A stretch of DNA of 64,000 bases from positions 96,001 through 160,000 of the IMG/VR virus record IMGVR_UViG_3300025858_000010; one strand, 5' to 3'. Under the pieces are notes generated by a model. The model was not told where the DNA came from. It saw only the letters and a list, made by a program, of their open reading frames with translations, and ran no database searches. The DNA is from a virus. Taxonomy: Duplodnaviria > Caudoviricetes. The first letter of the stretch is position 1; each line of letters starts with the position of its first letter. Both the position numbers and the translations under genes were made by a program. Shown piece after piece: positions 1,190 to 54,275 of this stretch.

Positions 1190-1471
1190 ATGAAAATAAA
1201 AAAGTATTCAGAATTTTTAAATGAAAATAAAACGCCTGAAAATTTTATTCCTGATTTTTTATATCATTCAATTGAACCTGAGAATTACGATAGTATTATG
1301 AGATACGGACTTAGAGGTGATATTTATTTAACCTTTACTCCGAAAGAAGCCGAAAAGCATCATCCAATAATTTTAAAAATTGATGTTAGAAATCGTCAAT
1401 TAATTAATAGTAATGAAGGTTGGATTGTAAAAGATGTTCCAATTGATAATATCGAATTATATAATAAATGA
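1190..1471 (+). CDS. Small ADP-ribosyltransferase-fold (KptA/Tpt1 C-terminal-like) protein with capsid-targeting-like leader
   Basis: Leader MKIKKYSEFLNE, then LYHS...NYDSIMRYGL...IYLT...ILKID, an ART-fold pattern. Confidence 0.5.
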   Translation: MKIKKYSEFLNENKTPENFIPDFLYHSIEPENYDSIMRYGLRGDIYLTFTPKEAEKHHPIILKIDVRNRQLINSNEGWIVKDVPIDNIELYNK

Positions 1472-1991
1472 AAGAATACAAAATAATAAATATTTAGATA
1501 TGAACAAGAGAGAAGAGGAATTGATTACCACATTATATAATTATTATGTTGATGGTACAGTAACAGAACTTAAAGTTGGTGATTATGTTAAGTATACAAG
1601 AACTGTTTCTAAACATTCTGGTAAAATAGGCACATTTGAAGGAACTAACAATGAAGGTAAGTATAAAATTAGATTCGATGATATTAAAATATTGTTAATC
1701 TGTAATCCACAACACGTGGAATCGATTAAAAAAGATGAAAAAAGTATTGATCGTTTAATAAAAATATTAAAACAAATGGTTCTTGATGGGGATTTAAGTC
1801 AAGTTGCAATAAATGAATTTTTAAATGGATTAAACAGAGAAAAGAAATTGAAAGAAATAGATCCATACGATGAAGAAAATTGGGAAGAAGAAGAAAAAGG
1901 AATGTTCCTACCCAAAAGAATATCCAAAACAAAAAGTAGAAGAACCATAGACCCTTTTGATCGTAGTGGAGGTTTTCACAGAGGATGTTAA
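1434..1991 (+). CDS. KOW/SH3-like protein with DPYDEENW tag (true start probably near 1468-1500)
   Basis: LKVGDYVKY...GKIGTFEG...YKIRFDD; KEIDPYDEENWEEEE at 1860-1883. Confidence 0.65.
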   Translation: MFQLIISNYIINERIQNNKYLDMNKREEELITTLYNYYVDGTVTELKVGDYVKYTRTVSKHSGKIGTFEGTNNEGKYKIRFDDIKILLICNPQHVESIKKDEKSIDRLIKILKQMVLDGDLSQVAINEFLNGLNREKKLKEIDPYDEENWEEEEKGMFLPKRISKTKSRRTIDPFDRSGGFHRGC

Positions 1992-2867
1992 ATGATATTA
2001 TTTAATAAAAAAATAGAATTAAAAACTCATTATTGTCGATATTTCGACGATGAATTAGAGGAAGTTGATGAACCATATGTTAATGTTCAAATAAAAATAA
2101 ATGGATGTAATGCTAATTGTTCATTTTGTAATAGTAAAAATGGACCATCTTTAGATGAAGATAAATATTATTCAAAATTAGAAAAAATATCAGAAAAAGT
2201 AAGAATTAGAAAATTAAATTTAAGTGGTGGCGAACCAACTCTTGATTTTGAAAAGTTAAAAAGAATATTATTAAAAACAAGAGAAATTCTTCCTAACGTT
2301 TATATGGCAATTAATACAAATGGATATAATTTTGAAAAATTATTCGAGAACGATTTATATAAAATAGTTGATAATATACAATTAAGCAGACATCATTACG
2401 TTGACGAAATCAACAACGAAATATTGGGTTTTAATTCAATATCAAAAGATATAATTCATAATATAAGCAAAGAATTAAGTAATAAAAGATTTTTAAATTT
2501 GTCTTGCAATCTTATTAATGGATATATAGATGATGAAAAAGAAATTTTCAATTTTTTAGAAGAATCTAGTAAAATTGATATTAGATGGGTTGGTTTTGTT
2601 ACTCTCATATCTTTAAATGAATATTGTGAAAATAATATAATTAAATTTAATGACATGAATTTATTAAATGATAGATTCGTTATCACCAATAGATTTACTT
2701 TCAAAAATTTATGTAAATGTTATGGATATGTATATATACCAACAGACGGTGGTGATCCAATAAGAGTATATAATAAACAAACTGAAAAATCTGATGACAT
2801 TAAAAACATATTGGTTTTCGATGGAGAAAATTTCAATATTGGATTTACAAATAATGTTTTAATTTAA
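1992..2867 (+). CDS. Radical SAM protein
   Basis: CxxxCxxC (CNANCSFC), SGGEPTL, INTNG, LSRHHY. Confidence 0.9.
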   Translation: MILFNKKIELKTHYCRYFDDELEEVDEPYVNVQIKINGCNANCSFCNSKNGPSLDEDKYYSKLEKISEKVRIRKLNLSGGEPTLDFEKLKRILLKTREILPNVYMAINTNGYNFEKLFENDLYKIVDNIQLSRHHYVDEINNEILGFNSISKDIIHNISKELSNKRFLNLSCNLINGYIDDEKEIFNFLEESSKIDIRWVGFVTLISLNEYCENNIIKFNDMNLLNDRFVITNRFTFKNLCKCYGYVYIPTDGGDPIRVYNKQTEKSDDIKNILVFDGENFNIGFTNNVLI

Positions 2868-3034
2868 TCTATTGGTCTAGTAAAAATTTCTAACATGTTA
2901 GACGGTGATGGATCATAATTATATGGTTTCTTTATAATTGTTTTACACCATATAAATCATTCCAAATATCTTTATTCCCTTCTTTCAGATAATATCTATA
3001 TCTATAATCTTTCCACGTTACGATTTTTTTCACA

Positions 3035-3607
3035 TCATTTTATATTGTTTTCATATTTTAATTTTAAAATTAGATAATCCGTGACTATATCAAAAATTTT
3101 TAAATTATCTATATCGCCAAAACTAACTTTAACGACTCTATTTTCTTCTGTCACTTTAATGCTAGTTTGTTTATAATCATTATAATTTATTGTTAATAGA
3201 CATATATGGTATTGCCCAACGTTATTAACGTCTTTAAATAAAACTTTATCGACTTCTATAGGAAATAATTGATTTAATACTACACCGGTTTTTTCATATA
3301 GAATGCGTCTAACATTTTGTGTTTCTGTTTGATCGTCGTTAAATGAATCTTTTATGCTTGTAAGATAATAATCTATTGTATTATATTCAGATTTATCCTT
3401 ATATTTAAATTTAAATGCTGGACATTTTTCATGTTTTAGAAGTATGTATCCTTCATCTTTAAAATATGGTAATATGACTACTTCAGCGTCACTAATAACA
3501 ACGTCTTTATCATCGAATTTAATAATTGATAATTCGTCATTTTTAAATATTTCTTCATTATCTTCGCGTTTTGGTTCATTTTTCTTTATTTTTGTAAATT
3601 TTTCCAT
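3035..3607 (-). CDS. Nudix-fold protein with degenerate Nudix box
   Basis: VVILPY...ILLKHEKCPAF followed by DSFNDDQTETQNVRRILYEKTG where Gx5Ex7REUxEExG is expected. Confidence 0.5.
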   Translation of the reverse strand: MEKFTKIKKNEPKREDNEEIFKNDELSIIKFDDKDVVISDAEVVILPYFKDEGYILLKHEKCPAFKFKYKDKSEYNTIDYYLTSIKDSFNDDQTETQNVRRILYEKTGVVLNQLFPIEVDKVLFKDVNNVGQYHICLLTINYNDYKQTSIKVTEENRVVKVSFGDIDNLKIFDIVTDYLILKLKYENNIK

Positions 3608-3622
3608 AATTTATATTTATTT

Positions 3623-3779
3623 TTAATCATCGTCCCAATTTTCTTCTCCGTATGGATCAATATCTTTCATCTTATCTCTAATTTCTAAATTTCTTAAAGG
3701 TTTCTATCTTAGATAATCCTTCGTATGGATCTATTTTCTTTTTTCTAAATATATTAAATTCTTCGAATAATTTAATCAT
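3623..3779 (-). pseudogene. Frameshifted mini-gene: leader plus DPYGEENW tag
   Basis: MIKLFEEFNIFRKKKIDPYEGLSKIE in one frame, then RNLEIRDKMKDIDPYGEENWDDD* in another; the shift is near 3700. Confidence 0.55.
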
Positions 3780-6856: not shown

Positions 6857-7198
6857 TTATTTTATATAATTATCTCTTTCATCGTCATACATATCCATTA
6901 ATATTTCTATAACTTTATTTATATTATCGATAAAATCATTTTTTTCTACATTTTTTGGTATGTTTAATCTATATGGTTTCCATCTTCCTTTAAAGGCATA
7001 TTCCTCAGGAGGATCTTCTAAAAACCCGAAATCAGATGGAGCGGACATCTTATAATATCTATGATCTTCTTCTGAAATCTTCCACCCCCTTTTTATTAAT
7101 AATGATAATAAATTATCTAATATTTTTTTATTATCATCCTCCCATATTTCTTCGTCGTAGGGATCTACATCTTTAAAATTCTCGAACTTCTTTATCAT
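6857..7198 (-). CDS. Hypothetical protein with leader and N-terminal DPYDEEIW tag
   Basis: MIKKFENFKDVDPYDEEIWEDD followed by a small alpha/beta domain. Confidence 0.7.
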   Translation of the reverse strand: MIKKFENFKDVDPYDEEIWEDDNKKILDNLLSLLIKRGWKISEEDHRYYKMSAPSDFGFLEDPPEEYAFKGRWKPYRLNIPKNVEKNDFIDNINKVIEILMDMYDDERDNYIK

Positions 7199-9857: not shown

Positions 9858-10157
9858 TTATTCCCATTCTTCTTCACCGTAAGGATCTATATCTTTATAT
9901 TTTTCAGATTTAATCCTTTGGTTCTCTTGAAATTCTTCTTTAGTTTTAGATAGAGAAATTTCCCATATATAACTTAACTGAACTGTATTTTTATTCAATG
10001 ATTCTAAATCATATTTCCACATATTTTGATCATTTGAACAATAATAATTTTTTATCACATAATAACCGTGTGCATTTCTATGCATACCATGATAATATAC
10101 TACATCACCGATTTTATATTTTGATTTATTTTTATTAAATTGTACAAATGTTTTCAT
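9858..10157 (-). CDS. KOW/SH3-like protein with leader and C-terminal DPYGEEEWE
   Basis: MKTFVQF...YKIGDVVYY...YKDIDPYGEEEWE*. Confidence 0.75.
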   Translation of the reverse strand: MKTFVQFNKNKSKYKIGDVVYYHGMHRNAHGYYVIKNYYCSNDQNMWKYDLESLNKNTVQLSYIWEISLSKTKEEFQENQRIKSEKYKDIDPYGEEEWE

Positions 10158-10160
10158 TTA

Positions 10161-10763
10161 TCATACCTCCCAATTTTCTTCACCGTAAGGGTCTACATCA
10201 GCGTGTGCTGCTAATTGTTGATCTCTTAATAATTTTTTATTCGAATCAGTGATTAAATAAGTATAACCTTTTTTTGTGTGTGTTTGATAAGAATTTATTT
10301 TTCCATTTTCATCATATAAAGTGACACCTTCCATATCGAATTTTTTACCCAATAATCTTAAAATAGATAATGTTTGATTAATTCTAATTAATATATTATT
10401 TAATATTTTTTTTATATTAATGTAAAAAAAATCCGTAAATGGAATAACCTTAAAACATTTTTCAAACACATTCCATTTTTCTTTAATGATGTTAATTTGA
10501 TCTTGTGTAAAATGAAATTTATATTTCATTAGAATTGAAACAAACAATTTACTTATTAAACTCAAATTGATGTAATATTTATTTACTACTTTTGTCAATT
10601 TTTCATTAGATATAATTTCAGCAAATATTTTTCTATTTTCAAAAAATAAAGCATTTAAATGATCAATTCTTTCTTCGAAAGTTTCATTGAAAATTGATTC
10701 ATTTATGTATGTGTCAAAATTTTTCATGTTATTCATACCATTCTTCTTCACCATATGGATCAT
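10161..10763 (-). CDS. Hypothetical protein with leader and C-terminal DPYGEENW (likely start at MNNMKNF, about 10736)
   Basis: MKNFDTYINES...HADVDPYGEENWEV*. Confidence 0.7.
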   Translation of the reverse strand: MIHMVKKNGMNNMKNFDTYINESIFNETFEERIDHLNALFFENRKIFAEIISNEKLTKVVNKYYINLSLISKLFVSILMKYKFHFTQDQINIIKEKWNVFEKCFKVIPFTDFFYINIKKILNNILIRINQTLSILRLLGKKFDMEGVTLYDENGKINSYQTHTKKGYTYLITDSNKKLLRDQQLAAHADVDPYGEENWEV

Positions 10764-11445
10764 TTTCTGTAAATTTTCTAATAGGTTCTACTATTTCGTA
10801 TTCTTGTATAACGTCAGATAATATATCTAAATATGTATCATCATCAACATCTCTAATAGTTAAATTGCTGGTAAATAATTTTTTGTAATTAACGTTAAGT
10901 CTTAGCTTTTTTGCATATTTACCTGTAGTGGATAAAGAATTAGGAACTAACATTATATTATAGAGTTTATTTTTACTGTATATGTCAATTAGCTTATTTT
11001 TATATTTTTCATTTAAATAATCACAAACTTTTTCGACATCTTGCAAATCATCGTATATTTTTTTAATGTCGATTTTATCACCAATTTTTTTTAAAATAAA
11101 ACTACTATTGTTCTCTTTTATCATTTTTTTCTGAGTGTCCTTATCAACATCATCCAAATATTTAGTTTTATTTTTTCTTAATTTATCGATATATCTATTC
11201 TTTCTTATTTTTCTTTTTTTTAATTCTCTATCTTTTCCGAAATAAGGGTCCTGCATAGAAATATCTTGCATGGTTATAACATCAGGTCTTCTATAAGTAG
11301 CTGAATCTGGACCTTTATTAAAAGAAGGTCCTGTGTTTTGATCACCAGATATTCCCATACTTCCATAACCAGTCACATTTCTGTAATCAGTATATTCTTC
11401 GAATGTTTTTAAATTTTTCATCTGGTTTTTATTCATCACACCCAA
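10729..11445 (-). CDS. Hypothetical protein with leader and C-terminal DPYGEEEWYE
   Basis: MKNLKTFEEY...FTENDPYGEEEWYE*. Confidence 0.7.
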   Translation of the reverse strand: MGVMNKNQMKNLKTFEEYTDYRNVTGYGSMGISGDQNTGPSFNKGPDSATYRRPDVITMQDISMQDPYFGKDRELKKRKIRKNRYIDKLRKNKTKYLDDVDKDTQKKMIKENNSSFILKKIGDKIDIKKIYDDLQDVEKVCDYLNEKYKNKLIDIYSKNKLYNIMLVPNSLSTTGKYAKKLRLNVNYKKLFTSNLTIRDVDDDTYLDILSDVIQEYEIVEPIRKFTENDPYGEEEWYE

Positions 11446-14056: not shown

Positions 14057-14935
14057 ATGTATATGAATAATCTAATGAATTTTGATGATTTTACTTTAAA
14101 TGAAAAGAATAAACCATCTGAAGGATTAACAAAAGAAAAAAAATCCGATATAGTTAAAAGAGCTAGGAGAGGCGAAGATATTGGTAAGAAAGGAAAAAAC
14201 TTTGAACAATTAAATAGATCGGATATTGATCCATACGGCGAGGAAGATTGGAACGATGATAATGATACACCGATAATACAGTTAGCTAAAGAACAAAATA
14301 AACCATTAGATCAAATAATGTCTTTATATTGTTATTATAATTCATTAACTAGTTTAGAAGGCATTGAACATTTAACTAATTTAGAAACATTAAATTGTTC
14401 TTATAATTCATTAACTAATTTAGAAGGCATTGAACATTTAACTAATTTAGAATTATTAGATTGTTCACGTAATCAATTAACTAATTTAGAAGGAATTGAA
14501 CATTTAACGAATTTAAGAGAATTATATTGTCATTCTAATCAATTAACTAATTTAGAAGGAATTGAACATTTAACGAATTTAGAGATATTATATTGTCATT
14601 CTAATCAATTAACTAGTTTGGAAGGAATTGAACATTTAACTAATTTAAGAGAATTATATTGTCATAATAATCAATTAACTAATTTAGATGGAATTGAACA
14701 TTTAACTAATTTAAGATATTTACATTGTTCGAATAATTCATTAACTAGTTTAGAAGGCATTGAACATTTAACGAATTTAGAATTATTAGATTGTTCACGT
14801 AATCAATTAACTAATTTAGATGGAATTGAACATTTAAAGAATTTACAATATTTATATTGTAATAATAATAGATTTACTGATGAATATAAAAATTATTTAA
14901 AATTAAAAACAAAAATAAAAAATATAATAATATGA
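14057..14935 (+). CDS. Leucine-rich repeat protein (9 x 22 aa) with leader and DPYGEEDW tag
   Basis: LTxLEGIEHLTNLxxLxCxxNx repeats; paralog of the four LRR genes at 50470-54275. Confidence 0.92.
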   Translation: MYMNNLMNFDDFTLNEKNKPSEGLTKEKKSDIVKRARRGEDIGKKGKNFEQLNRSDIDPYGEEDWNDDNDTPIIQLAKEQNKPLDQIMSLYCYYNSLTSLEGIEHLTNLETLNCSYNSLTNLEGIEHLTNLELLDCSRNQLTNLEGIEHLTNLRELYCHSNQLTNLEGIEHLTNLEILYCHSNQLTSLEGIEHLTNLRELYCHNNQLTNLDGIEHLTNLRYLHCSNNSLTSLEGIEHLTNLELLDCSRNQLTNLDGIEHLKNLQYLYCNNNRFTDEYKNYLKLKTKIKNIII

Positions 14936-20662: not shown

Positions 20663-22063
20663 ATGAAAATATTAAGATATAATAATTTTTTTAAGGAAAA
20701 TGTACAACCTTTTACTGGTGATGAAGAAGTTCAACTACAACCAGAAGAAGATAAATTGAACATTGATCAATATAACCAATTGAGATTATGGGATATTGAT
20801 GATGATAGCTTTAAGACAGAAGATGAAAAGAAAAGGGATTTGAAAGTAAAAAAAATTCATGATGATTTAATTAAAAAAATAAAAAAAGAACCAAAGGTTG
20901 AAGAAGTAAGACAGCCAACACCTATAGAAATTGGTGATTGGGTAGAAATTTTTGATTTTAACGATTTGAATAAAAATCAAAAAAAGTTTTTAAAATCCAA
21001 ACCCTATCATTACGTCAAAGCAGTCACTAATAGTAAAGGCAATATATATGAAGTCGGTGATCCACATATTGATATTGGATATAAAATTCCATTTAAAATG
21101 TGTAGATTTAAAAAAACAGAAAAACCGGATAGTAAATATAAAGTACTTTTTATTCAATTCGATTTGGCTATAGATACACATGGTGAAAAAGATGTCTATA
21201 ATTTTTTTAGAGGATTTGAAAATATGTCCGGATTATTTCCAGTTTTATTTTATGAAAAAATGAAAGATGATGTTTTTGTTAATTTTGTTAATTATGATGA
21301 TATTTATAAAATAAAAAAAGATTATTATGCACATGGTATTTGTTTGAAAGATTACAATTTTGTATTTTTTGGACACGTATCAAATTTCACATCTTTGTGT
21401 AAAATGATTGTTAATTATCTAAATAGAAATGATATTCCTTATTTAAAATATGGTACTTATAGTGAATATGATAATAAGGCTTATGAATTTGATCTTTTAG
21501 AAAATTTAGGATATCCATATATACCATCAATAATGACTACTAAATTAACAAATAAAATAATCAGTATAGTTGAAAATGACTTTGGATTCCCAGTTATTGT
21601 CAAAGATGTTAAAGCAAATAGAGGTACTGGCGTTTTCTTGATCAAAGATTTGAAAAACTTAATCAAAACTTTTTCACATAGATATTCTTCCAATTTGATG
21701 TTGATACAAAAATTCATACCAAACGATGGGGATTATAGGGTTATAACAATAAAAAATAAAGTTGAATTGATAATAAAGAAAAAAAGAATAGACGAAAAAG
21801 AATTTAGATCTAATGTGGCTAGAGGGGCAAAGGCTATAAAAGGAAAATTACCATCTAATATCATTAAAATGTGTGAAGATGTATCTAAACATTTAGACAG
21901 TGATATTTTAGGATTTGACATAATACAGAATAAAAATACAAAGGAATATTACATAATGGAGGTTAATTCGGCTTCACATTTCTCTACCTTTTCTGTTATA
22001 TCGGGTGTCAATATTCCAGAAATAATAGTTAATTATATTATTAAAAAAATCAAAAATAATTAA
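20663..22063 (+). CDS. RimK/LysX-family ATP-grasp ligase with N-terminal leader and SH3-like extension
   Basis: DNK, FGFPVIVK...RGTGVFL, IQKFIPNDGDYRV, FRSNVARG, GFDII, MEVNS; leader MKILRYNNFFKE. Confidence 0.88.
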   Translation: MKILRYNNFFKENVQPFTGDEEVQLQPEEDKLNIDQYNQLRLWDIDDDSFKTEDEKKRDLKVKKIHDDLIKKIKKEPKVEEVRQPTPIEIGDWVEIFDFNDLNKNQKKFLKSKPYHYVKAVTNSKGNIYEVGDPHIDIGYKIPFKMCRFKKTEKPDSKYKVLFIQFDLAIDTHGEKDVYNFFRGFENMSGLFPVLFYEKMKDDVFVNFVNYDDIYKIKKDYYAHGICLKDYNFVFFGHVSNFTSLCKMIVNYLNRNDIPYLKYGTYSEYDNKAYEFDLLENLGYPYIPSIMTTKLTNKIISIVENDFGFPVIVKDVKANRGTGVFLIKDLKNLIKTFSHRYSSNLMLIQKFIPNDGDYRVITIKNKVELIIKKKRIDEKEFRSNVARGAKAIKGKLPSNIIKMCEDVSKHLDSDILGFDIIQNKNTKEYYIMEVNSASHFSTFSVISGVNIPEIIVNYIIKKIKNN

Positions 22064-22064: not shown

Positions 22065-23078
22065 ATGTATTCATTTAAAAAATATAAAAATTTTTTAAAC
22101 GAAAATAATTATTTGACATTTGATGATCTCGTTTTTAAATATCATCCACAACTGAATACAGAATTTGATAAAATAAACTTCAATAACGGATATGTTCTAT
22201 CGGTATTTAGACTCGATGATAAATATCTACCGGGAAGTGAATATAGTATGTTCTATTTTGATCATGAGAAAAGTAAATACATTCTACTATTTTCATCTAA
22301 AGAAGAAGTTAGTGAAAAAATGATTGAACTTCAAAAAAGAAAAGAAAAAAAGAGAATATTTACTACCGAAGATCCTTATGGCGAAGAAGATTGGAATAAC
22401 GAAAATATAGTTCAGAAAAAAAAGATAAAATATAAAAATTTTTTAAACGAAAATAATTATTTGACATTTGATGATCTCGTTTTTAAAGATCATCCATATG
22501 TAGACGATGTAAAAATTGCCAAAATGGATTTCGATAATGGTTATAGTGTATCTTTATTATTTGGTGAAAAAGTGTATTCAAACTCTAAAGACACATACGA
22601 AATGATGTGTTTTGATTACAGAGGAGAAAATATTTACGATGATGTGTTACCATATTTAACTAAAGATCAAGTTAGTGAAAAAATGATTGAACTTCAAAAA
22701 AGAAAAGAAAAAAAGAGAATATTTACTGCCGAAGATCCTTATGGCGAAGAAGATTGGAATGATGATGATAATATTTCAGAAAATTTAGATCAAAAAGAAA
22801 AAATCACCACGGTACAATTATGGAATGAATATTTACGCAAAGGCAGGAAATATGTGATGGATAAATTAAGATATAGAGATATTGAATTTGTAACAAAATC
22901 AAAAAAAGTTAAAAAATACAAAGGTAAAATATGTGGTTTTGTTCCTGCTTTTTTGTATTCAGATAAAGAAATAATAATTCTTTTCGATACCAAAGAATAT
23001 GGAGTTTTAAAAGTTAATGATAAATATCCAATTATTCTAAATCCAAAAAGTGAATACGAGGACGAAGACGATGAATAA
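22065..23078 (+). CDS. Modular protein with two leader-domain-DPYGEEDW units plus a third domain
   Basis: KYKNFLNENNYLTFDDLVFK and VSEKMIELQKRKEKKRIFTxEDPYGEEDWN each occur twice. Confidence 0.85.
   Translation: MYSFKKYKNFLNENNYLTFDDLVFKYHPQLNTEFDKINFNNGYVLSVFRLDDKYLPGSEYSMFYFDHEKSKYILLFSSKEEVSEKMIELQKRKEKKRIFTTEDPYGEEDWNNENIVQKKKIKYKNFLNENNYLTFDDLVFKDHPYVDDVKIAKMDFDNGYSVSLLFGEKVYSNSKDTYEMMCFDYRGENIYDDVLPYLTKDQVSEKMIELQKRKEKKRIFTAEDPYGEEDWNDDDNISENLDQKEKITTVQLWNEYLRKGRKYVMDKLRYRDIEFVTKSKKVKKYKGKICGFVPAFLYSDKEIIILFDTKEYGVLKVNDKYPIILNPKSEYEDEDDE
22079..22760 (+). repeat. Two pairs of direct repeats: 22079-22139/22427-22487 (61 bp) and 22306-22397/22669-22760 (92 bp, 1 mismatch)
   Basis: Direct comparison of the sequence. 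Confidence 0.9.
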
Positions 23079-37200: not shown

Positions 37201-37218
37201 AATCTTTAATATTAAATT

Positions 37219-37249
37219 AAAAAAACCTATCAAAAAGATAGGTTTTTTT
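37219..37249. terminator. Bidirectional intrinsic terminator
   Basis: AAAAAAACCTATC-AAAAA-GATAGGTTTTTTT between convergent genes. Confidence 0.8.
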
Positions 37250-37303
37250 GTTTATTTCTTTATCTGAACGATTCACTGGATAAAGGCACATAATGGTTTC
37301 TTA

Positions 37304-39121: not shown

Positions 39122-39166
39122 TTAATTTATTTATTTTTTACTATATATTAATATATTATGATTGAT

Positions 39167-43139: not shown

Positions 43140-44099
43140 TTATACGTCTATTTTTGTAAAACCACCGCTAGCACTATTTAAAATTATTCTTTTATGTCCA
43201 GGTATATAATTACCAGCATTACTACCGAGTCTTCCCGTGCTTGGTGTATAATAAGGAAGGGTGTCTAATGATGGATAATGTTCATATTCTCTTGGTTTCA
43301 ATACTATAGCCACTGAACTAGTAATAATTTTACCATTATCCATATATGATGAATCATGCATAACTTGTTTTACTTTATAAAACCAATTGTTTTGCATAGC
43401 GTGGTTAATATATAATTTTTTATCAGCGTCATCTATGGTATAAACTCTATCCATATAAATTCTATCAAGTGGTTTTCTTAATCCCCACCAAACTAGAGCT
43501 CTTCCTTTAATTTTTTCTTTTTCTTTATCACTCATTAATATTAAAAGTTTACATTTATCTGGATTATTTGTATAAATATCTAAGAATGGTTGAGATTTGA
43601 TAGCTTTCATACACGAATTATTTATATCACCTCGCGATGTGTTTTCATACCTATCTTCAAGATACCAATATCTTATTTCTTCACCATCAACTAGTTTAAA
43701 TTTAGAAAAAGACTTGTTAATTTCAGCTTTAAAATCATTTACGAATTGTTCTATTTCGGTTTGTTTAAATTTATCAGGAAATAATTTATTAATTATTTTT
43801 CCCACAGATATTTCTTGTCTCATTCTAGAATTCCAAGGTTCTGATGGCGAATCATCAATTAAATCTTGAGAAATTCTATTAGACGGTAAATAAGTTATTT
43901 TATCAATCTTATCTTTTTCTTCTGTATAATCTAGAAATGAAATATCGAATTTTTTTTCATTTACTGCCAATAAAATAGCGTCAGATATTGGAGATTTTAT
44001 TTTCGATAATAGTATTTTAAATTTAGAAGATATTACTAAAATATATTTTTTATCATCATCCGATTCAAATAAAAAACTATTATAGTTATATATGAACAT
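43140..44099 (-). CDS. SCM/RALxW/DRxY/YPxxDT-family protein, paralog 4 of 4
   Basis: NSCMK, GRALVW, MDRVY, YPSLDT; leader MFIYNYNSFLFE. Confidence 0.8.
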   Translation of the reverse strand: MFIYNYNSFLFESDDDKKYILVISSKFKILLSKIKSPISDAILLAVNEKKFDISFLDYTEEKDKIDKITYLPSNRISQDLIDDSPSEPWNSRMRQEISVGKIINKLFPDKFKQTEIEQFVNDFKAEINKSFSKFKLVDGEEIRYWYLEDRYENTSRGDINNSCMKAIKSQPFLDIYTNNPDKCKLLILMSDKEKEKIKGRALVWWGLRKPLDRIYMDRVYTIDDADKKLYINHAMQNNWFYKVKQVMHDSSYMDNGKIITSSVAIVLKPREYEHYPSLDTLPYYTPSTGRLGSNAGNYIPGHKRIILNSASGGFTKIDV

Positions 44100-44115
44100 T
44101 TATTATAAGTTTATT

Positions 44116-45171
44116 TTAATTGGATTCTCTTAACTTTTTAAATCCGCCGTTTGTTCTTTGTAATTGTAATCTTTCAAATACATTTCCAGTATTCGGATTT
44201 CTAGCAGGTTTACCTCTAGAATTAGCAATTCTTCCTGTTTCTGGTGTATAAAAACATAAAGTATCTATATATGGATAAGTTTTATAATATCCGTGATTAG
44301 GTAATCTGGTTGATATTGGTTTATTAATTTCAACACCGTTAAATATAAAAGTCAAACAATCTTTAACTTGATGTGTTTTATATGACCAACCATTTTTCTT
44401 AGCATAATCTATAAATATATTCACATCAGATTCATTTGTGTAATATATTCTATCCAATAAAGTTCCCTTAGTCGGTGATTCTGGTTTATCTACTACAAAA
44501 ACATTATACCATATTAAAGCCCTAGCCACAAGTTGTTCTTTTTTATTTAACATTATTAACATTTTAATATTGTCTGGATTTTTAACATAAATGTCAAAAA
44601 ATCCTTGTTTTTCTGGATGTTTTAAACAGGATTTCATTAATACCGATCTAGGATCTGGTCTACCATCTGGTGGTTTATCAATTATGCCCGGAGTGGGATT
44701 ATAATAAGTATCTACATGATAATATTTTCTAAGTTCTTCTCCATCGACAATTCTAAGTGTATAATTTTCAGAATCTAATTTGCTTTTAAATTCATGAACA
44801 AAATTTTCTAATTCTTTAGTTCCAGCATATTCCGGAAGAAGTCTCGTAGCAAAAGCACCGACTCTATTTATTTGTCTACCATATTTCCCCCAAACAACAC
44901 TATTAGGTTGAGGAACAATTAAATCGTCGTCTTTTACGCCTTCCATTCTATTTAATCTATTTACTGGCAATATACTTACAGTTTCTACATTATCTGCTAG
45001 ATCAACATAAGAAAAAGAATATTCAATGTTTTTTTTAAGTAATTCTAATAATTCTTTAGCAATAACTGATTGCATTGATTCCAAAACCTCAATAAGTTTA
45101 TCTGAAAAAAACATTCTGAGTTCTTTCACGTTAATTCTATCTTCAAATAAATAATCTTTATATTTTTTCAA
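44116..45171 (-). CDS. SCM/RALxW/DRxY/YPxxDT-family protein, paralog 3 of 4
   Basis: KSCLK, ARALIW, LDRIY, YPYIDT; leader MKKYKDYLFE. Confidence 0.8.
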   Translation of the reverse strand: MKKYKDYLFEDRINVKELRMFFSDKLIEVLESMQSVIAKELLELLKKNIEYSFSYVDLADNVETVSILPVNRLNRMEGVKDDDLIVPQPNSVVWGKYGRQINRVGAFATRLLPEYAGTKELENFVHEFKSKLDSENYTLRIVDGEELRKYYHVDTYYNPTPGIIDKPPDGRPDPRSVLMKSCLKHPEKQGFFDIYVKNPDNIKMLIMLNKKEQLVARALIWYNVFVVDKPESPTKGTLLDRIYYTNESDVNIFIDYAKKNGWSYKTHQVKDCLTFIFNGVEINKPISTRLPNHGYYKTYPYIDTLCFYTPETGRIANSRGKPARNPNTGNVFERLQLQRTNGGFKKLRESN

Positions 45172-45188
45172 ATCTAATTTAATTATTT

Positions 45189-46220
45189 TTAATCAATTCT
45201 TCCATATGAACCGTCACCTGATTCAAGTTTGATTCTTTTAAATCCTTCAACAGGATTTCCTTGATCACTGGCCAATCTTCCAGTACCTGGGTTATAAAAT
45301 TTTAAAGTGTCCATATATGGATATTTTTTATATTCCATTGCTGGTAATTGTAAAGAAACAGATTTTTGTATTCTTTGACCATTTTCAACATACGATGTAT
45401 CATGTGCACTTTGTTGATACTTATATAACCACCCTTGTTGAATCGCGTATTTTTTAAATAATTCTTCATCTGAAGGTTTATTAACATAAATTCTATCCAT
45501 AAAAGTCTTATCTGTGGGTTTTCTTAATCCAAACCATACTAATGCTCTACCAATCAATTTTTGATTGTAGTCTGTTAAAATAAGTAAACCACATTTATCT
45601 GGATTTTTACAATATAAATCGAAAAAACTTTGGCAATTATTATATCTCATACATGATTGATTTAAATTTCCTATCGGATTAGTACTATAATTTTTTTCAT
45701 GATACCAATTTCTAATATCTTCGCCTTTAACAACTCTAAAATTATTAAAAATAAATAAAGCTGAAATCTCTGCTCTAAAAGCGTTAACAAATTTTTCAAT
45801 AGCCATATCAGAAAAATTATCAAATAATTTATTCACTAGTTTTCCGGCTGCCAATGATTGTCTTCCACTACCTTTCCACATTGGACAATCTATATCTGGA
45901 TCTATATTTGCTTCTTCTTGATCTTTGAAATTCATAGATCTCCAAGCTCTTGATGCTGGCATAAAAGAAATAAAATCATTTTTACCTTCTTCCATATCAA
46001 AATAAGATATGTCGAAAAGTTCATTATCTGTTTTCGTAAGACCTATTATTCTATTAGCTACAGTTTTAACCTGAAAATCTCCTGTTTTTATCATATTGTT
46101 GAGTATGACAAGTAATCTAGGTGAAATAAAAATTTTTAATAATTTTTTTTCTTTGACAAATTTTTCAGGTTTGGCTTCATTAATTTCATTTAAAAAATTT
46201 TTATATGTCATTTTATTCAT
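45189..46220 (-). CDS. SCM/RALxW/DRxY/YPxxDT-family protein, paralog 2 of 4
   Basis: QSCMR, GRALVW, MDRIY, YPYMDT; leader MNKMTYKNFLNE. Confidence 0.8.
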   Translation of the reverse strand: MNKMTYKNFLNEINEAKPEKFVKEKKLLKIFISPRLLVILNNMIKTGDFQVKTVANRIIGLTKTDNELFDISYFDMEEGKNDFISFMPASRAWRSMNFKDQEEANIDPDIDCPMWKGSGRQSLAAGKLVNKLFDNFSDMAIEKFVNAFRAEISALFIFNNFRVVKGEDIRNWYHEKNYSTNPIGNLNQSCMRYNNCQSFFDLYCKNPDKCGLLILTDYNQKLIGRALVWFGLRKPTDKTFMDRIYVNKPSDEELFKKYAIQQGWLYKYQQSAHDTSYVENGQRIQKSVSLQLPAMEYKKYPYMDTLKFYNPGTGRLASDQGNPVEGFKRIKLESGDGSYGRID

Positions 46221-46237
46221 CTTTTATTATGTATTTT

Positions 46238-47233
46238 TTAATCAATTTTAGCATAACCACCATCTTGACTTCTCAAATTATATCTATGAAAAACTTTACT
46301 AGGATTACTCGGATCCCTGGCTGGATTACCAGCTGTTGAAGACGCTCTGCCAGTGGACGGTGTAAAATATTGCATTGTATCCATGTATGGATATTTACCA
46401 TAATCTATTGGTTTCAAACGTATCGTAACTGATGTTGTTTTTCGTTGACCGTCCATCATAAAAGCATCTCCTTCTTTATAAATCCATCCATTATCTATTG
46501 CATATTTTTTAAACATTGCTACTAATTGTGATTTACCTTCTACTACATATACTCTATCCATTAATGTATATGGTTCTTTATCTTCTTTTGTATCTCCACT
46601 CGGTTTAAATAATCCAGACCATACCAAAGCTCTTCCATAAGCTTTTTCACCAGTTTCATCTAAATAAATTAAAAGACCGCATTTTTCTGGATTTTCGCAA
46701 TAAATATTAAAAAATGGTTTACATTTATCATATCTCATACAAGATCCCATACGTCCGTTGTACATTTTTTCATTATACCATTTTCTAATATCTTCACCTT
46801 TAACTAATTCAAAATTGTTACCTTTTGATTTTTTCGCATCTATTTCTGGCCGATATCTATTATAGAATTCATCTATGTCCATGTTTGTAAATTTATCAGG
46901 AAATAATTTATTGATTATTTTTCCTATTAATGAACTTTGTCTTAATGTACTTGTCCATAAAGGACTATTTGGATCATAATTAATTAAATCAACATTTTCA
47001 ATTCTTTTTGCTCTGTCAGTAGTTAAGAATGAAATATTTTTGCTGTCTTCCTCATCAATATCTAACCAAGATATATTAGAAATAGGTTTTCGGTCGTTTG
47101 CAAGTAATTCTTTCGCTACCTTATTAGTACTTATTTTATTTAATATTTTAAAAAAGTTTAAGCTAAAAAATAATTTACTTGTTTCTTTTTTGTTATCAGC
47201 ATCTTCGTTTAAAAAATCATTAAAGTTTTTCAT
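46238..47233 (-). CDS. SCM/RALxW/DRxY/YPxxDT-family protein, paralog 1 of 4
   Basis: GSCMR, GRALVW, MDRVY, YPYMDT; leader MKNFNDFLNE. Confidence 0.8.
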   Translation of the reverse strand: MKNFNDFLNEDADNKKETSKLFFSLNFFKILNKISTNKVAKELLANDRKPISNISWLDIDEEDSKNISFLTTDRAKRIENVDLINYDPNSPLWTSTLRQSSLIGKIINKLFPDKFTNMDIDEFYNRYRPEIDAKKSKGNNFELVKGEDIRKWYNEKMYNGRMGSCMRYDKCKPFFNIYCENPEKCGLLIYLDETGEKAYGRALVWSGLFKPSGDTKEDKEPYTLMDRVYVVEGKSQLVAMFKKYAIDNGWIYKEGDAFMMDGQRKTTSVTIRLKPIDYGKYPYMDTMQYFTPSTGRASSTAGNPARDPSNPSKVFHRYNLRSQDGGYAKID

Positions 47234-50470: not shown

Positions 50471-51222
50471 TATATTTGTTTATGATTTATTTTTAATGTT
50501 TTTAAATAATTTTTATATTCATCAGTAAATCTATTATTATTACAATATAAATATTGTAAATTCTTTAAATGTTCAATTCCTTCTAAACTAGTTAATTGAT
50601 TATAAGAACAATCCAATTCTCTTAAATTAGTTAAATGTTCAATGCCTTCTAAACTAGTTAATTGATTAGAATGACAATATAATTCTCTTAAATTTGTTAA
50701 ATGTTCAATGCCTTCTAAACTAGTTAATAGATTAGTATTACAAAGTAATATTTTTAAATTCGTTAATTGTTCAATGCCTTCTAAACTAGTTAATTGATTA
50801 GAATGACAATATAATTCTCTTAAATTTGTTAAATGTTCAATGCCTTCTAAACTAGTTAATTGATTATTAGAACAATATAATGTTTTTAAATTCGTTAAAT
50901 GTTCAATTCCTTCTAAACTAGTTAATCTATTATTAGAACAATCTAATAATTCTAAATTCGTTAAATGTTCAATGCCTTCTAAACTAGTTAATTGATTATA
51001 AGAACAATCCAATTCTCTTAAATTCGTTAAATGTTCAATTCCTTCTAAACTAGTTAATGATTTATCAGAACAACTCAAATGTGTTATTTGATCTAATGGT
51101 TTATTTTGCTTTTTGGCCAACGTTATTATCGGTGTATCATTATCGTCATCCCAATCTTCTTCACCATATGGATCAATATCTGACATATTTAATTGTTCAA
51201 ATATTTTAAAATTCTTTATCAT
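50470..51222 (-). CDS. Leucine-rich repeat protein (9 repeats) with leader and DPYGEEDW tag
   Basis: MIKNFKIFEQLNMSDIDPYGEEDW followed by 22-aa LRRs. Confidence 0.92.
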   Translation of the reverse strand: MIKNFKIFEQLNMSDIDPYGEEDWDDDNDTPIITLAKKQNKPLDQITHLSCSDKSLTSLEGIEHLTNLRELDCSYNQLTSLEGIEHLTNLELLDCSNNRLTSLEGIEHLTNLKTLYCSNNQLTSLEGIEHLTNLRELYCHSNQLTSLEGIEQLTNLKILLCNTNLLTSLEGIEHLTNLRELYCHSNQLTSLEGIEHLTNLRELDCSYNQLTSLEGIEHLKNLQYLYCNNNRFTDEYKNYLKTLKINHKQI

Positions 51223-51223: not shown

Positions 51224-51976
51224 TTATATTTTTAAGTCATTTATTTTTAGTGTTTTTAAATAAAATTTATACATAAAATTAAATTTATTATTAGAACAAT
51301 ATAATGTTTCTAAATTCGTTAAATGTTCAATTCCTTCTAAATTAGTTAATTGATTATTATAACAATATAATGATTTTAAATTCGTTAAATGTTCAATGCC
51401 TTCTAAATTAGTTAATCTATTATTATAACAAATTAATGTTTTTAAATTAGTCAAATGTTCAATACCTTCTAAACTAGTTAATTGATTATTAGAACAATGT
51501 AAATATCTTAAATTAGTTAAATGTTCAATTCCTTCTAAACTAGTTAATTGATTAGAATGACAATATAATTCTCTTAAATTCGTTAAATGTTCAATTCCTT
51601 CTAAACTAGTTAATTGATTATTAGAACAATGTAATAATTCTAAATTCGTTAAATGTTCAATTCCATCTAAACTAGTTAATCTATTATTATAACAAATTAA
51701 TTCCCTTAAATTTGTTAAATGTTCAATGCCATCTAAATTAGTTAATTGATTATAAGAACAATCCAATTCTCTTAAATTCGTTAAATGTTCAATTCCTTCT
51801 AAACTAGTTAAATTTTTATGAGAACAATTTAAAATCATTATTTGATCTAATGGTTTATTTTGTTTTTTGGCCAACGTTATTATCGGTGTATCATTATCGT
51901 CATCCCAATCTTCTTCACCATATGGATCAATATCTTGCCTACTTAATAGCTCAAATATTTTAAAATTCTTTATCAT
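51224..51976 (-). CDS. Leucine-rich repeat protein (9 repeats) with leader and DPYGEEDW tag
   Basis: MIKNFKIFELLSRQDIDPYGEEDW followed by 22-aa LRRs. Confidence 0.92.
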   Translation of the reverse strand: MIKNFKIFELLSRQDIDPYGEEDWDDDNDTPIITLAKKQNKPLDQIMILNCSHKNLTSLEGIEHLTNLRELDCSYNQLTNLDGIEHLTNLRELICYNNRLTSLDGIEHLTNLELLHCSNNQLTSLEGIEHLTNLRELYCHSNQLTSLEGIEHLTNLRYLHCSNNQLTSLEGIEHLTNLKTLICYNNRLTNLEGIEHLTNLKSLYCYNNQLTNLEGIEHLTNLETLYCSNNKFNFMYKFYLKTLKINDLKI

Positions 51977-51977: not shown

Positions 51978-52532
51978 TTATATTACTATACGCGTTTTTA
52001 ATTTTGATTTTAAATAATTTTTATATTCTTGAGTAAATTTGTTATTATTACATTTTAATTTTCTTAAATTCTTTAAATTATCAATACCGTTTAAATTAGT
52101 TAATGAATTATTATTACAAAATAGTATTTCTAAATTCTTTAAATGTTCAATGCCTTCTAAACTAGTCAATTGATTATCGAAACAATATAATTCTCTCAAA
52201 TTAGTTAAATGTTCAATTCCTTTCATACTATTTAATCTATTATTATAACAAACTAATGTTTTTAAATTAGTTAAATGTTCAATACCTTCTAAACTAGTTA
52301 ATGAATTATTATAGCAATATAATTCAATTAAATTTGTTAATCTATCAATTCCTTCTAAACTAGTTAATTCATTATTATAACAATATAAACTCCTTATTTG
52401 ATCTAATGGTATATTTTGTTCTTTAGCTATAATTATTATTGGAGTATCATTATCATCGTTCCAATCTTCTTCATTATATGGATCAATATCTTGTCTACTT
52501 AATTGCTCAAATATTCTAAAATTCTTTATCAT
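51978..52532 (-). CDS. Leucine-rich repeat protein (6 repeats) with leader and DPYNEEDW tag
   Basis: MIKNFRIFEQLSRQDIDPYNEEDW followed by 22-aa LRRs. Confidence 0.92.
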   Translation of the reverse strand: MIKNFRIFEQLSRQDIDPYNEEDWNDDNDTPIIIIAKEQNIPLDQIRSLYCYNNELTSLEGIDRLTNLIELYCYNNSLTSLEGIEHLTNLKTLVCYNNRLNSMKGIEHLTNLRELYCFDNQLTSLEGIEHLKNLEILFCNNNSLTNLNGIDNLKNLRKLKCNNNKFTQEYKNYLKSKLKTRIVI

Positions 52533-52545
52533 CGCATTATTTTTT

Positions 52546-52782
52546 TTAAAACATATTCTTTAATTCGTCGAGCGCGTCAGCGGCTGAACTAATTTTATTA
52601 TAATATTCTATCGATATAACTCTATCATCGTCTTGAACGATAATTTTTGATATTTCATCCAAAAGAGGAGAAGTCATGTTTATTAATTTCTGTAATCTTT
52701 CTGTATCAATGGATGTTGATGGCTGAACAGATTCTGGTTCGAATTGTTCGAATTTTTTCATTCTATTTGTTACTTTTTTCAT
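52546..52782 (-). CDS. Small helical protein with leader-like MKKFEQFE
   Basis: 78-aa ORF downstream of a TATATA motif. Confidence 0.6.
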   Translation of the reverse strand: MKKVTNRMKKFEQFEPESVQPSTSIDTERLQKLINMTSPLLDEISKIIVQDDDRVISIEYYNKISSAADALDELKNMF

Positions 52783-52861
52783 CGATTTTTATTTTTTTTT
52801 TATCATTTTATTTATATATATTTTTTTATTTTCAATATTCGTAAAGAAATAATTTTTATAT

Positions 52862-53518
52862 TTAATATATTATTGTCCATCCCTTAGATAATAAACTATT
52901 CCTATCCAAATCTGAATATGATGTTGGAAGAGCATTACCAGTTGTGTCTATATTTCCATTATAAGATAAAAATGTATTAGCTGGAATGTATATATCATAA
53001 TCGACATCTAGTATACTATTACCGGAAACATTTATAGAATTTAATTCTATCAAACCGTTTATATCTATTGTACTTAAATAATTTTTTTTCAGACTCAATA
53101 TGTTCAATTTTTTAAGATTCCTTATTATAATAGATGTGACTCCTTGATTATTCATGACCAAACTATTTATTAAAGATACACCTCCACTTATATTAATTGT
53201 ATATATTCCATTATCATCATAATCATAATTAATAACATTTTCATTTTCTTCAATTATATTTATTTTTTGAGCTACTTTTCCATCACCCCAATCTGCAGAT
53301 AAAGTCATTGAATTTGAAGATACTATTGTGAAAGAAACAGATAATGAATTTTTTAATGTATTTATGACAAAGATGAGCGAATCTATTGGGATGTTATCGT
53401 CATCAACAGTTAAAGTAGATATTATGTTATCATTTAATATTGGTATAGGTAATTTAGTTAATTTATCAATTCCTATATCTATTAATTCGACTGGTTTTAA
53501 TGTTAAGCTAGTATCCAT
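52862..53518 (-). CDS. PKD-like plus short LRR-like protein
   Basis: ADWGDG...YDY...G.YTI.I PKD pattern; LKKLNILSLKKNYL LRR-like turns. Confidence 0.6.
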   Translation of the reverse strand: MDTSLTLKPVELIDIGIDKLTKLPIPILNDNIISTLTVDDDNIPIDSLIFVINTLKNSLSVSFTIVSSNSMTLSADWGDGKVAQKINIIEENENVINYDYDDNGIYTINISGGVSLINSLVMNNQGVTSIIIRNLKKLNILSLKKNYLSTIDINGLIELNSINVSGNSILDVDYDIYIPANTFLSYNGNIDTTGNALPTSYSDLDRNSLLSKGWTIIY

Positions 53519-53519
53519 T

Positions 53520-54275
53520 TTATATTTTTTTATTTTCGATATTTAATGGTTTTAAATACTTTTTATATTCGCTAGAAAATTTATTATTGAAACAATATAA
53601 TGTTTCTAAATTCGTTAAATGTTCAATTCCTTCTAAACTGGTTAATTCATTATTAGAACAATATAATTCTCTTAAATTCGTTAAATGTTCAATTCCATCT
53701 AAATTAGTTAATTGATTAGAATGACAATATAATTCTCTTAAATTCGTTAAATGTTCAATTCCTTCTAAATTAGTTAATGAATTATAAGAACAATTTAATG
53801 TTTCTAAATTAGTTAAATGTTCAATTCCTTCTAAATTAGTTAATTGATTAGAATGACAATATAATTCTCTTAAATTCGTTAAATGTTCAATGCCTTCTAA
53901 TCTAGTTAATGAATTATTATTACAATATAAATATTGTAAATTCTTTAAATGTTCAATTCCATCTAAATTAGTTAATTGATTATTATAACAATATAATGAT
54001 TTTAAATTCGTTAAATGTTCAATGCCTTCTAAATTAGTTAATCTATTATCAGAACAATTTAATATTCTTAATTTCGTTAAATGTTCAATTCCTTCTAAAC
54101 TAGTTAATGATTTATCAGAACAACTCAAATGTGTTATTTGATCTAATGGTTTATTTTGCTTTTTGGCCAACGTTATTATCGGTGTATCATTATCGTCGTT
54201 CCAATCTTCCTCGCCATATGGATCAATGTCTTGTCTACTTAATTGTTCAAATATTTTAAAATTCATTAAATTCAT
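53520..54275 (-). CDS. Leucine-rich repeat protein (9 repeats) with leader and DPYGEEDW tag
   Basis: MNLMNFKIFEQLSRQDIDPYGEEDW followed by 22-aa LRRs. Confidence 0.92.
   Translation of the reverse strand: MNLMNFKIFEQLSRQDIDPYGEEDWNDDNDTPIITLAKKQNKPLDQITHLSCSDKSLTSLEGIEHLTKLRILNCSDNRLTNLEGIEHLTNLKSLYCYNNQLTNLDGIEHLKNLQYLYCNNNSLTRLEGIEHLTNLRELYCHSNQLTNLEGIEHLTNLETLNCSYNSLTNLEGIEHLTNLRELYCHSNQLTNLDGIEHLTNLRELYCSNNELTSLEGIEHLTNLETLYCFNNKFSSEYKKYLKPLNIENKKI

Follow-up and report, generated by a model that had tools for sequence, protein, structure and literature searches.

Roughly one gene in five of an uncultured huge phage carries a short N-terminal leader resembling the T4 capsid-targeting sequence

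Many proteins encoded by an uncultured huge phage have at their N-terminus a short peptide resembling the capsid-targeting sequence (CTS) of phage T4. The DNA under study, here called the window, is a stretch of 64,000 nucleotides (nt) that corresponds to bases 96001-160000 of one 243,112-bp contig with 26% GC (IMG/VR record IMGVR_UViG_3300025858_000010); positions in Table 1 and, where no other frame is named, those up to 64,000 in the text are positions of the window. The leader, M-x(2-5)-[FY]-x-x-[FY]-h-x-E (h, hydrophobic), is carried by about a fifth of the genes, that is by about 50 open reading frames (ORFs; 43-48 by pattern, about 54 as the excess of the aromatic pair over chance). We consider it probable, at roughly 0.6, that these leaders are T4-type capsid-targeting propeptides and that they belong to a greatly expanded variant of the T4 capsid-targeting system. 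If so, the capsid is probably loaded with many proteins, including some enzymes, and the leader would serve in their binding, packaging, cleavage and delivery into the host.

A simple ATG-only call gave 281 ORFs, which cover 91% of the 243-kb contig. The pattern, with the h-x pair optional, lies within the first 22 residues of 43 of them, whereas 500 shuffles of the first 24 residues gave 5.9 +/- 2.3 matches with a maximum of 14. This strict pattern reaches a density of 31 per 1000 positions at residues 4-7, compared with 1.2-1.4 per 1000 within proteins, and the motif begins at residues 4-7 in 35 of the 44 N-terminal matches, which is a 25-fold enrichment at this place. The aromatic pair alone (i, i+3, beginning at residues 4-9) is found in 81 of the 281 ORFs and in 26.8 +/- 4.8 after shuffling, an excess of about 54 ORFs.

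A wider rule, by which a Met stands 2-6 residues before the aromatic pair, yields 48 leader ORFs, which fall into class 1 (ar-x-x-ar-h-x-E; 21 ORFs), class 2 (ar-x-x-ar-E; 20 ORFs), which keeps h-[FY]-E in a shifted register, and the looser class 3 (7 ORFs). In addition, 15-20 still looser variants (e.g. MKHIKKFNE, MKNLKTFEEY) were left outside the 48. Class-1 leaders have I, L, V or F at P3 and Glu at P1, and 16 of these 21 ORFs continue with N, S or G at P1'. The bodies behind the 48 leaders belong to 31 unrelated families, as determined by all-against-all blastp from residue 26 onward, and the leader genes are spread along the entire 243 kb, well beyond the window.

Between positions 1190 and 54275 there are 55 ORFs, and about 20 of them are leader-like (Table 1). 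An earlier note on this stretch, made from the sequence, had listed about 20 leader-bearing proteins here, and every item of its list was found again; in those ORFs in which the leader starts at an inner Met, the true start lies directly after the stop codon of the upstream gene. The repeated KKYKNFLNE that the same note had reported at 22065 proved to be a tandem duplication of leader, body and acidic tag within a 337-aa protein, in which a second internal KYKNFLNE/N copy (slash, predicted cut) follows the first DPYGEEDW tag. A Sec or lipoprotein signal peptide was considered and dropped, as the leaders are broken by K, N, E and D and contain no hydrophobic run (judged by sequence, no predictor); true signal peptides of this genome look different, e.g. 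MKKIIALLTLFVAF.

Conservation of the leader was followed in a family of GNAT-like proteins, which has four adjacent paralogues in the window (43140-47233 (-)) and seven members in the genome. The 331-aa protein at 46238-47233 has 278 homologues in a metagenome protein collection. Among the best 120 of these, 76 show the class-1 motif within their first 25 residues, and most of the remaining ones listed have either a one-residue-longer form (FNSYMINE/A) or a start that was called inside the leader. In an alignment of 73 homologues of this protein, position 4 is Tyr in 49 and Phe in 24 and position 7 is Phe in 55 and Tyr in 18, so that both are always aromatic. Glu10 is present in 73 of 73 sequences, and just 20 columns along the full length of the protein, this one included, are invariant. 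Among the 73 sequences, 70 have L, I, V or M at P3 (position 8) and 57 continue with A, S or G at P1', positions 5, 6 and 9 vary freely, and the spacer from the leader to the first conserved body residue measures 8-38 residues. Four positions are thus conserved as residue classes while those in between are free to change, which indicates selection on the peptide.

In the T4 CTS, residues 4 and 7 are the main determinants of targeting, whereas processing depends on residues 8 and 10 (Mullaney and Black 1996, as described in the review PMC9026906, section 2.6). These four T4 positions (Tyr4, Phe7, Ile8, Glu10) are the four positions that are conserved in the leaders. The likeness to the T4 CTS that had been claimed in the earlier note thus holds at the positions that matter in T4, and it extends to a gp21-type protease fused to the scaffold, to the repetition of the motif in this scaffold and to the invariant P1 Glu of the alignment. 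The packaging and probable injection of a cargo far larger than in T4, which that note had put forward as well, are hypothetical.

In an AlphaFold2 model of paralogue 4 (mean pLDDT 91.4), the leader forms a helix at residues 2-9 with a pLDDT of only about 60, followed by coil, and the well-defined body begins near residue 19; the leader is therefore predicted to lie apart from the folded body. The body itself is only weakly GNAT-like: all 50 top VIA rows were GNAT proteins with Z 5.0-6.6, scores that are below the level which the tool calls safe, and the best Foldseek match had an E value of 2.5e-3. The bodies of this family share invariant S-C-M and G-R motifs. The leader is missing from body homologues outside this head type, namely gp037 of the podovirus phi38:1, which sits among non-structural genes, and a protein of an Owenweeksia metagenome-assembled genome.

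The contig is that of a huge phage with a T4-type head assembly, as follows from the sequences of its capsid protein (29543-31300 (-), Pfam Gp23 match), its Portal_T4 portal and its gp21-like protease domain. Protease and scaffold form one fused protein of 808 aa (31379-33805 (-)). In tblastn searches residues 22-198 matched proteins annotated as gp21 or prohead core protease of cyanophages and others (E 1e-12 to 6e-25), and both the HP and the SSR motif (GEFDHP, VSSRAAG) are retained when the domain is aligned locally to T4 gp21. The protein begins MKNVLIIE/N, i.e. with LIIE/N, and T4 gp21 begins MNEPQLLIE/T, of which LLIE/T fits the cleavage logo according to PMC9026906. Candidate protease sites that had been named in the earlier note are indeed present, both in the capsid propeptide (HQMNE/N) and in the scaffold (VNE/S, LNE/S, FNE/S, INE/S and MNE/S).

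Genome-wide, the class-1 pattern occurs 23 times at an N-terminus and 30 times internally, and the protease-scaffold protein alone accounts for 14 of these 30. Twelve of these 14 make up a 14-residue tandem repeat (residues about 305-482), each unit of which fits the leader core [FY]xx[FY]hxE; the copies of the repeat are not independent events. It is the sole tandem repeat unit in the proteome that fits the leader pattern, and it lies in the head scaffold. In structure prediction the repeat region forms a single unbroken helix of about 200 residues (pLDDT 87.6). At P2 the repeat has Ala, whereas most leaders have Asn. Of the 53 occurrences of h-N-E-[SGN] in the proteome, 6 fall within the scaffold (0.6 expected, P = 3e-5) and 13 within N-terminal residues 5-19 (2.4 expected), and h-x-E sites number 41 in the scaffold as compared with 17.4 expected. 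The genome additionally encodes two homologues of M16 (insulinase-type) peptidases with an intact HxxEH (window 57534-58646 (+), genome 93394-94569 (-)), which might serve in the clearance of leader and scaffold peptides or as an alternative processing enzyme.

On these grounds we propose that the head would be built as in T4, with the portal, the scaffolding core and the gp23-type shell assembling first and the scaffold-fused, gp21-type serine protease then cutting after hydrophobic-x-Glu. The leader would bind to the scaffolding core via its two aromatics, the bound protein would be enclosed at shell closure, and the protease would free the cargo by a cut after the Glu, the next residue being usually N, S, G or A. 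The scaffold presents the four-residue signature of the leader 12 to 14 times along one long predicted helix, and the leader may act as one copy of the unit through which the scaffold makes its contacts and is cleaved. A further-reaching suggestion, which we offer tentatively and would not ourselves rate at even odds, is that in this clade of huge phages the CTS is such a one-unit copy of the scaffold motif and the loading system of about a fifth of the genes, by which a cargo of leucine-rich repeat (LRR), acetyltransferase-like and enzyme proteins is delivered together with the DNA. About ten N-terminal residues would then suffice for co-assembly with the scaffold, release of the cargo would come from the very cuts by which the scaffold is taken apart, and the hypervariable LRR binders, the acetyltransferase-like proteins and the enzymes that handle RNA or nucleotides (CCA-adding, PPK2, RimK-type) would form an effector set for the first minute of infection.

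Most of 30 carriers had no match in Pfam. The domains that were recognised are a poly(A) polymerase/CCA-adding head with HD from residue 36, PPK2 from residue 163, a RimK-type ATP-grasp from residue 278, and LRR repeats. PHROGs gave no family for 17 of 20 proteins and families of unknown function for the other 3; among ten carriers there was one match, again to a family of unknown function, and no family for the rest. Of 30 non-leader ORFs with at least 280 residues that were scanned for comparison, 19 have clear domains of ordinary enzymes, chaperones and replication proteins. In detail, these include adenylosuccinate synthetase, Hsp70, DnaJ, IMPDH/GMP reductase, DNA polymerase B and terminase as well as aminoacyl-tRNA synthetase, radical SAM proteins, M16 peptidases, glycosyltransferases and a histidine kinase. 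Where the best-matched Pfam stretch starts early (adenylosuccinate synthetase, Hsp70, DnaJ, M16 peptidases, tRNA synthetase), the start of the domain is no later than residue 25. The leader is therefore depleted among recognisable housekeeping proteins, although not absent from enzymes. A tblastn comparison with T4 found only 8 ORFs that match T4, none of them with a leader, which are too few to act as a marker set.

The carrier of the CCA-adding/poly(A)-polymerase type is located at L013:15811-17253 (genome 87811-89256). Among its 120 closest homologues (P0123-P0242) the strict aromatic pattern is found in 11, and h-x-E-[GSAN] occurs within the first 22 residues of 89, compared with 1 of 120 in a control window; as all 120 are close relatives, they offer no clean contrast with cellular enzymes. 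The N-terminal h-x-E pattern of these enzymes is suggestive of a leader.

Many leader proteins also bear an acidic tag, DPY[GDN]EE.W (typically DPYGEEDW), which was found in 38 ORFs genome-wide (e.g. window 7151-7174, 51150-51195 and 61155-61355). By the strict rule 18 of the 38 tagged ORFs have a leader (odds ratio 6.4), by eye even more do, and the link persists when it is collapsed by family (odds ratio 5.0, P = 0.0025). The tag stands either directly after the leader or at the C-terminus behind a basic helix, and in several proteins leader, body and tag follow one another as a series of modules. Leader and tag seem to mark one class of proteins.

With regard to timing, a TAATATATA box lies about 30 nt before the protease-scaffold gene, the portal gene and several very large ORFs, and from the genes behind it we infer that it is a late promoter. 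It is present at most 60 nt upstream of 16 of the 48 leader ORFs and of 33 of the 233 others (odds ratio 3.0, P = 0.003).

For the relatives of the phage, the sampled loci were stretches of about 41 kb surrounding the capsid gene. In its capsid protein the phage shares 85% identity with the 735-kb uncultured phage LR756501 and about 50% with three further phages above 630 kb. Four relatives (capsid identity about 50-85%) have 11-14 motif matches in the homologous protease-scaffold protein, and LR756500 has 2. The nearest cultured relative is Tenacibaculum phage PTm1 (portal identity 26%), in which the same protease-scaffold fusion is annotated, without the repeat. ORFs of Lak phage were called with table 11 and were possibly miscalled. 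By eye, many starts of the type MKHIKRFNE are seen in the relatives L002-L004.

Several results count against a T4-type loading system. The Pfam S77 match of the protease is under the curated cut-off (18.4 as compared with 27 bits). A 12-column position-specific scoring matrix built from 12 scaffold repeats matched, at a threshold of 4, only 2 of 280 N-termini and 26 of 4982 internal windows; its eight best N-terminal scores all come from leader-like starts, yet these scores are low. The idea that the leader equals a full scaffold repeat was dropped, the full-width repeat profile having no N-terminal enrichment, and by these sequence profiles the likeness between leader and scaffold does not go beyond the four key positions. 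Some 4 of the 48 matches to the wider rule look like chance, and class 2 (FKIFE) and class 3 (KTFEEY) depart from the spacing of the cleavage residues in T4. Three leader carriers are ordinary-looking enzymes, and the proposed cargo, about 20% of all gene products, is very large. In PTm1 neither the leader (31 coding sequences in a 29.6-kb stretch) nor the scaffold repeat was found, and in the relatives L002-L004 the scaffold repeat is kept, but the strict motif is only slightly above expectation in the vicinity of the capsid gene (3/46, 5/60 and 1/44, with 0.9, 1.7 and 0.4 expected). No virion proteome of this phage or of leader-bearing relatives was found in the open-access literature.

The data on gene timing are likewise divided. 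The TAATATATA box is near only a third of the leader ORFs, and in a count by transcription units leaders amount to 29/129 in 'late' and 7/47 in 'early' units (P = 0.30); this count makes use of TAnnTTTG, which we take to be a Bacteroidota host-type promoter motif and which is probably too weak a marker at 26% GC. The comparison of late with early genes that the earlier note had called for thus came out in favour of late leaders in the box test and failed to do so in the test by units. The same note had named an equal frequency of the motif among early or metabolic genes as a refutation; the 19 ordinary enzymes, chaperones and replication proteins among the scanned non-leader ORFs speak against such an equality, and the three enzymes with a leader speak for it.

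Other explanations have to be considered beside a capsid-targeting function. The leader might be a pro-sequence that is cut by a phage protease, be it the prohead protease or an M16 enzyme, without any packaging, and that keeps enzymes and binders inactive or marks them for turnover until late in infection. The conserved h-x-E and small residue at the leader end, the two M16 homologues with their HxxEH and the carrier enzymes that have no obvious role inside a capsid would all agree with this, yet we know of no M16 enzyme that cuts after Glu in such a context, and the same signature is repeated in the scaffold protein. We regard this explanation as unlikely, the aromatics being as conserved as the Glu, while in T4 they serve targeting and not cleavage (PMC9026906). 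It is quite unlikely, too, that leader and DPYGEEDW tag together address another assembly (the outside of the virion, head fibres, a decoration, a chaperone or docking hub) with a merely convergent likeness to the CTS: leader and tag do co-occur, the LRR carriers could be outward-facing binders and the relative PTm1 reportedly has head fibres, but the leader Glu and the small P1' match the protease sites, the motif is found in the scaffold, an internal head component, and the leader is outside the folded body in the model. Both of these explanations account less well for the aromatics and the scaffold repeat than capsid targeting does.

That the shared N-terminus is a mere by-product of gene shuffling, i.e. 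a mobile module of promoter, start and first codons whose peptide has no function, is very improbable in our view. Many leader genes have the TAATATATA box close upstream and duplicated modules exist, but the box lies at varying distances, and nucleotide identity between body families is 41% in the upstream 45 nt, 53% in the leader and 33% downstream, with best between-family pairs that reach 80% over 30 nt next to unrelated upstream sequence. A shared DNA cassette was rejected as the main cause from the upstream and leader identities. Moreover, the codons of the leader aromatics switch among TAT, TTT, TTC, TAC and TGG, and the residue-class conservation at four positions over 73 homologues would not be expected of a functionless peptide, although shuffling may have been the route by which the leader spread. 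There is only a very slight chance that the leader serves for recognition by a modifying enzyme such as a radical-SAM maturase. Of two radical-SAM genes, one (79075-80139) adjoins leader- and tag-bearing genes, but leader genes are scattered over all 243 kb, Pfam gave Radical_SAM, with LAM_C in one of the two and no SPASM (30 non-leader ORFs scanned), and the scaffold repeat as well as the match to T4 would be left unexplained. Finally, an effect of composition or of translation starts in an AT-rich genome, which the earlier note had itself named as a possible refutation, can practically be dismissed: at 26% GC codons for K, N, I, F, Y and E would be favoured near the start, and nearly all leader residues have codons of A and T only, but the shuffles described above keep the composition and yield far fewer patterns and aromatic pairs, and spacing and invariant Glu are kept in homologues from many other contigs.

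Table 1. Leader sites and head-assembly features in the window (slash, predicted cut; aa, amino acids)
Feature	Positions	Strand	Remarks
Leader MKIKKYSEFLNE/N, class 1	1190..1225	+	93-aa ORF; ATG start; TAATATATA box 28 nt upstream
Leader-like MIKLFEEF	3756..3779	-	33-codon ORF, probably a remnant
Leader MIKKFENF	7175..7198	-	113-aa ORF; ATG start; DPYDEEIW tag directly after
Leader-like MKTFVQF	10137..10157	-	99-aa ORF; ATG start; loose variant, P1 Glu unclear
Leader MKNFDTYINE/S	10698..10727	-	ORF 10161-10763; inner Met just past upstream stop
Leader MKNLKTFEEY, class 3	11392..11421	-	ORF 10729-11436; inner Met past upstream stop
Leader MNFDDFTLNE/K	14075..14104	+	LRR protein, 292 aa; inner Met past upstream stop
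Leader MKILRYNNFFKE/N	20663..20698	+	466-aa protein, C-terminal RimK-type ATP-grasp (278-459); ATG start
Leader MYSFKKYKNFLNE/N	22065..22103	+	337-aa protein; ATG start
Putative propeptide of gp23-type capsid protein, ending HQMNE/N (residue 43)	31172..31300	-	cleavage point predicted
Scaffold tandem repeat, 12-13 units of 14 residues, (D)KSIxYSEYIAE/N	32360..32893	-	
gp21-type prohead protease domain, residues about 22-198	33212..33742	-	tblastn; alignment to T4 gp21
T4-type portal (gp20 family), 605 aa	37304..39121	-	Pfam Portal_T4; part of head-assembly set
Leader MFIYNYNSFLFE/S	44064..44099	-	GNAT-like paralogue 1; ATG start
Leader (M)KKYKDYLFE/D	45142..45171	-	GNAT-like paralogue 2; TTG start
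Leader MTYKNFLNE/I	46185..46211	-	GNAT-like paralogue 3; inner Met past upstream stop
Leader MKNFNDFLNE/D	47204..47233	-	GNAT-like paralogue 4; ATG start
Leader MIKNFKIFE/Q, class 2	51196..51222	-	LRR protein; ATG start; then DPYGEEDW tag
Leader MIKNFKIFE/L	51950..51976	-	LRR paralogue; ATG start
Leader MIKNFRIFE/Q	52506..52532	-	LRR paralogue; ATG start
Leader MKKFEQFE/P	52738..52761	-	small ORF 52546-52782; inner Met past upstream stop
Leader MNFKIFE/Q	54246..54266	-	LRR paralogue; inner Met past upstream stop

Some further observations concern the head genes and their surroundings. The portal protein begins MASYDRY, with aromatics at positions 4 and 7 as in the leaders, which may be chance; the portals of relatives begin MASYDRY or MASYNNF, and the second aromatic is missing in two. 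DNA nearly identical to window 29500-39200 is present in 14 metagenome runs from several studies (wastewater, activated sludge, bioreactor and groundwater), each containing 90% or more of the sampled words, so that the phage is common in data from wastewater and activated sludge, and 21-33% of sampled words from this head-gene stretch were found in five metatranscriptome runs. The capsid and scaffold genes are flanked by a family of ORFs of 480-650 aa that start with MILTK, MIIEK or MLLNE (window 17220-18989, 25561-29388 and 33932-37200, and at least five more places in the genome). Most copies have the TAATATATA box, and by their look they resemble mobile endonuclease genes, for which they are candidates.

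Elsewhere in the genome two separate ORFs (genome 68245-69357 and 174415-176685) gave matches to a large terminase of T4 type, in its N-terminal domain, and an intein splicing domain was found in another ORF (genome 61419-62513). A hybrid histidine kinase of 941 aa (PAS, HisKA, HATPase, receiver) extends on the minus strand from window 63685 to genome 162510 and thus crosses the window end. An ORF of 1693 aa at genome 45771-50852 (-) (L011:9771-14852), which lies behind a TAATATATA box, contains three GTFVKYLVE/IEK sites at a spacing of 60 residues and has no Pfam or PHROGs family at the thresholds used; it may be another head protein that is cut by the protease.

No paper on such leaders or on a CTS-like scaffold repeat in huge phages was found in the open-access literature. 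The T4 CTS is the textbook route of loading proteins into a phage head, known from a handful of small internal proteins. If our interpretation as capsid-targeting propeptides is true, the same device would be used on about 50 genes, including enzymes and a fast-evolving family of binding proteins, and the scaffold repeat would hint at the origin of the tag. It would also provide a testable idea of how the CTS binds to the core, and a sequence rule that predicts the cargo or injected proteome of uncultured huge phages, in which effectors of anti-defence and takeover are likely. In addition, short tags of this kind could be used for loading foreign proteins into large capsids.

In T4 the CTS of IPI, IPII and IPIII is likewise an N-terminal peptide of about 10 residues on unrelated proteins. 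According to the T4 record, IPII and IPIII begin MKTYQEFIAE, IPI begins MKTFKEF and Alt begins MELITELFDE, and the same ORF caller and pattern, when applied to T4, matched 6 of 252 ORFs. The agreement extends to details: MKTYQEFIAE/A in T4 and MKNFNDFLNE/D or MKKYSEFLNE/N here share aromatics at 4 and 7, hydrophobic-x-Glu and then a small residue, and both genomes combine a T4-type capsid, portal and gp21-like protease. Residues 59-65 of T4 gp23, FGSFLTE/A, also fit the class-1 pattern, and gp21 cuts gp23 after this Glu65. The unstudied T4 ORF 61.1 (NC_000866, 18966-19130, 54 aa) begins MKTFKEFIKE, a close match to the CTS. The CTS has been put forward as a possible means, arisen in evolution, by which T4-like phages take up diverse proteins into the head (PMC9026906).

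The differences from T4 are nevertheless considerable. About 50 carriers in 31 families are found here, as compared with three class-1 N-termini plus IPI in T4; P2 is mostly Asn instead of Ala; the first aromatic stands at residues 4 to 9, whereas it is fixed at 4 in the T4 CTS; and shifted variants (FKIFE/Q, KTFEEY) occur that the T4 CTS does not have. Unlike the T4 CTS cargo, the carriers here comprise LRR arrays and recognisable enzymes, many of them with a second acidic tag. The scaffolding core of T4 is likewise a long helical protein dense in h-x-E sites, and by analogy the scaffold of the present phage would be cut into small peptides by the protease. In T4, however, scaffold and gp21 are separate, whereas here they are one protein, and T4 gp22, gp67 and gp68 have no match to the motif that forms the 14-residue CTS-like repeat in the scaffold of this phage.

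A precedent for an enzyme that is packed into the head is T4 Alt, an ADP-ribosyltransferase with a short N-terminal peptide that is trimmed by gp21. The CCA-enzyme homologues in other contigs mostly have Alt-like leaders of the Leu type, e.g. MIIKLKDLLMEG, to be compared with MELITELFDE of Alt. The enzymes proposed here (CCA-adding/poly(A)-polymerase type, PPK2, RimK-type and GNAT-like) differ from Alt and are candidate cargo.

Another known system is that of the phiKZ-like giant phages, SPN3US being reported to have about 50 different head proteins (PMC7411985). In SPN3US, phiKZ and 201phi2-1 many head-internal proteins, among them ejection and inner-body proteins, bear N-terminal propeptides that a prohead protease cuts off after x-x-Glu (PMC5694885). 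These propeptides are 80-160 residues long, have no short shared motif and end in A/S/G-x-E, whereas the leaders described here measure about 10 residues and are of the T4 type.

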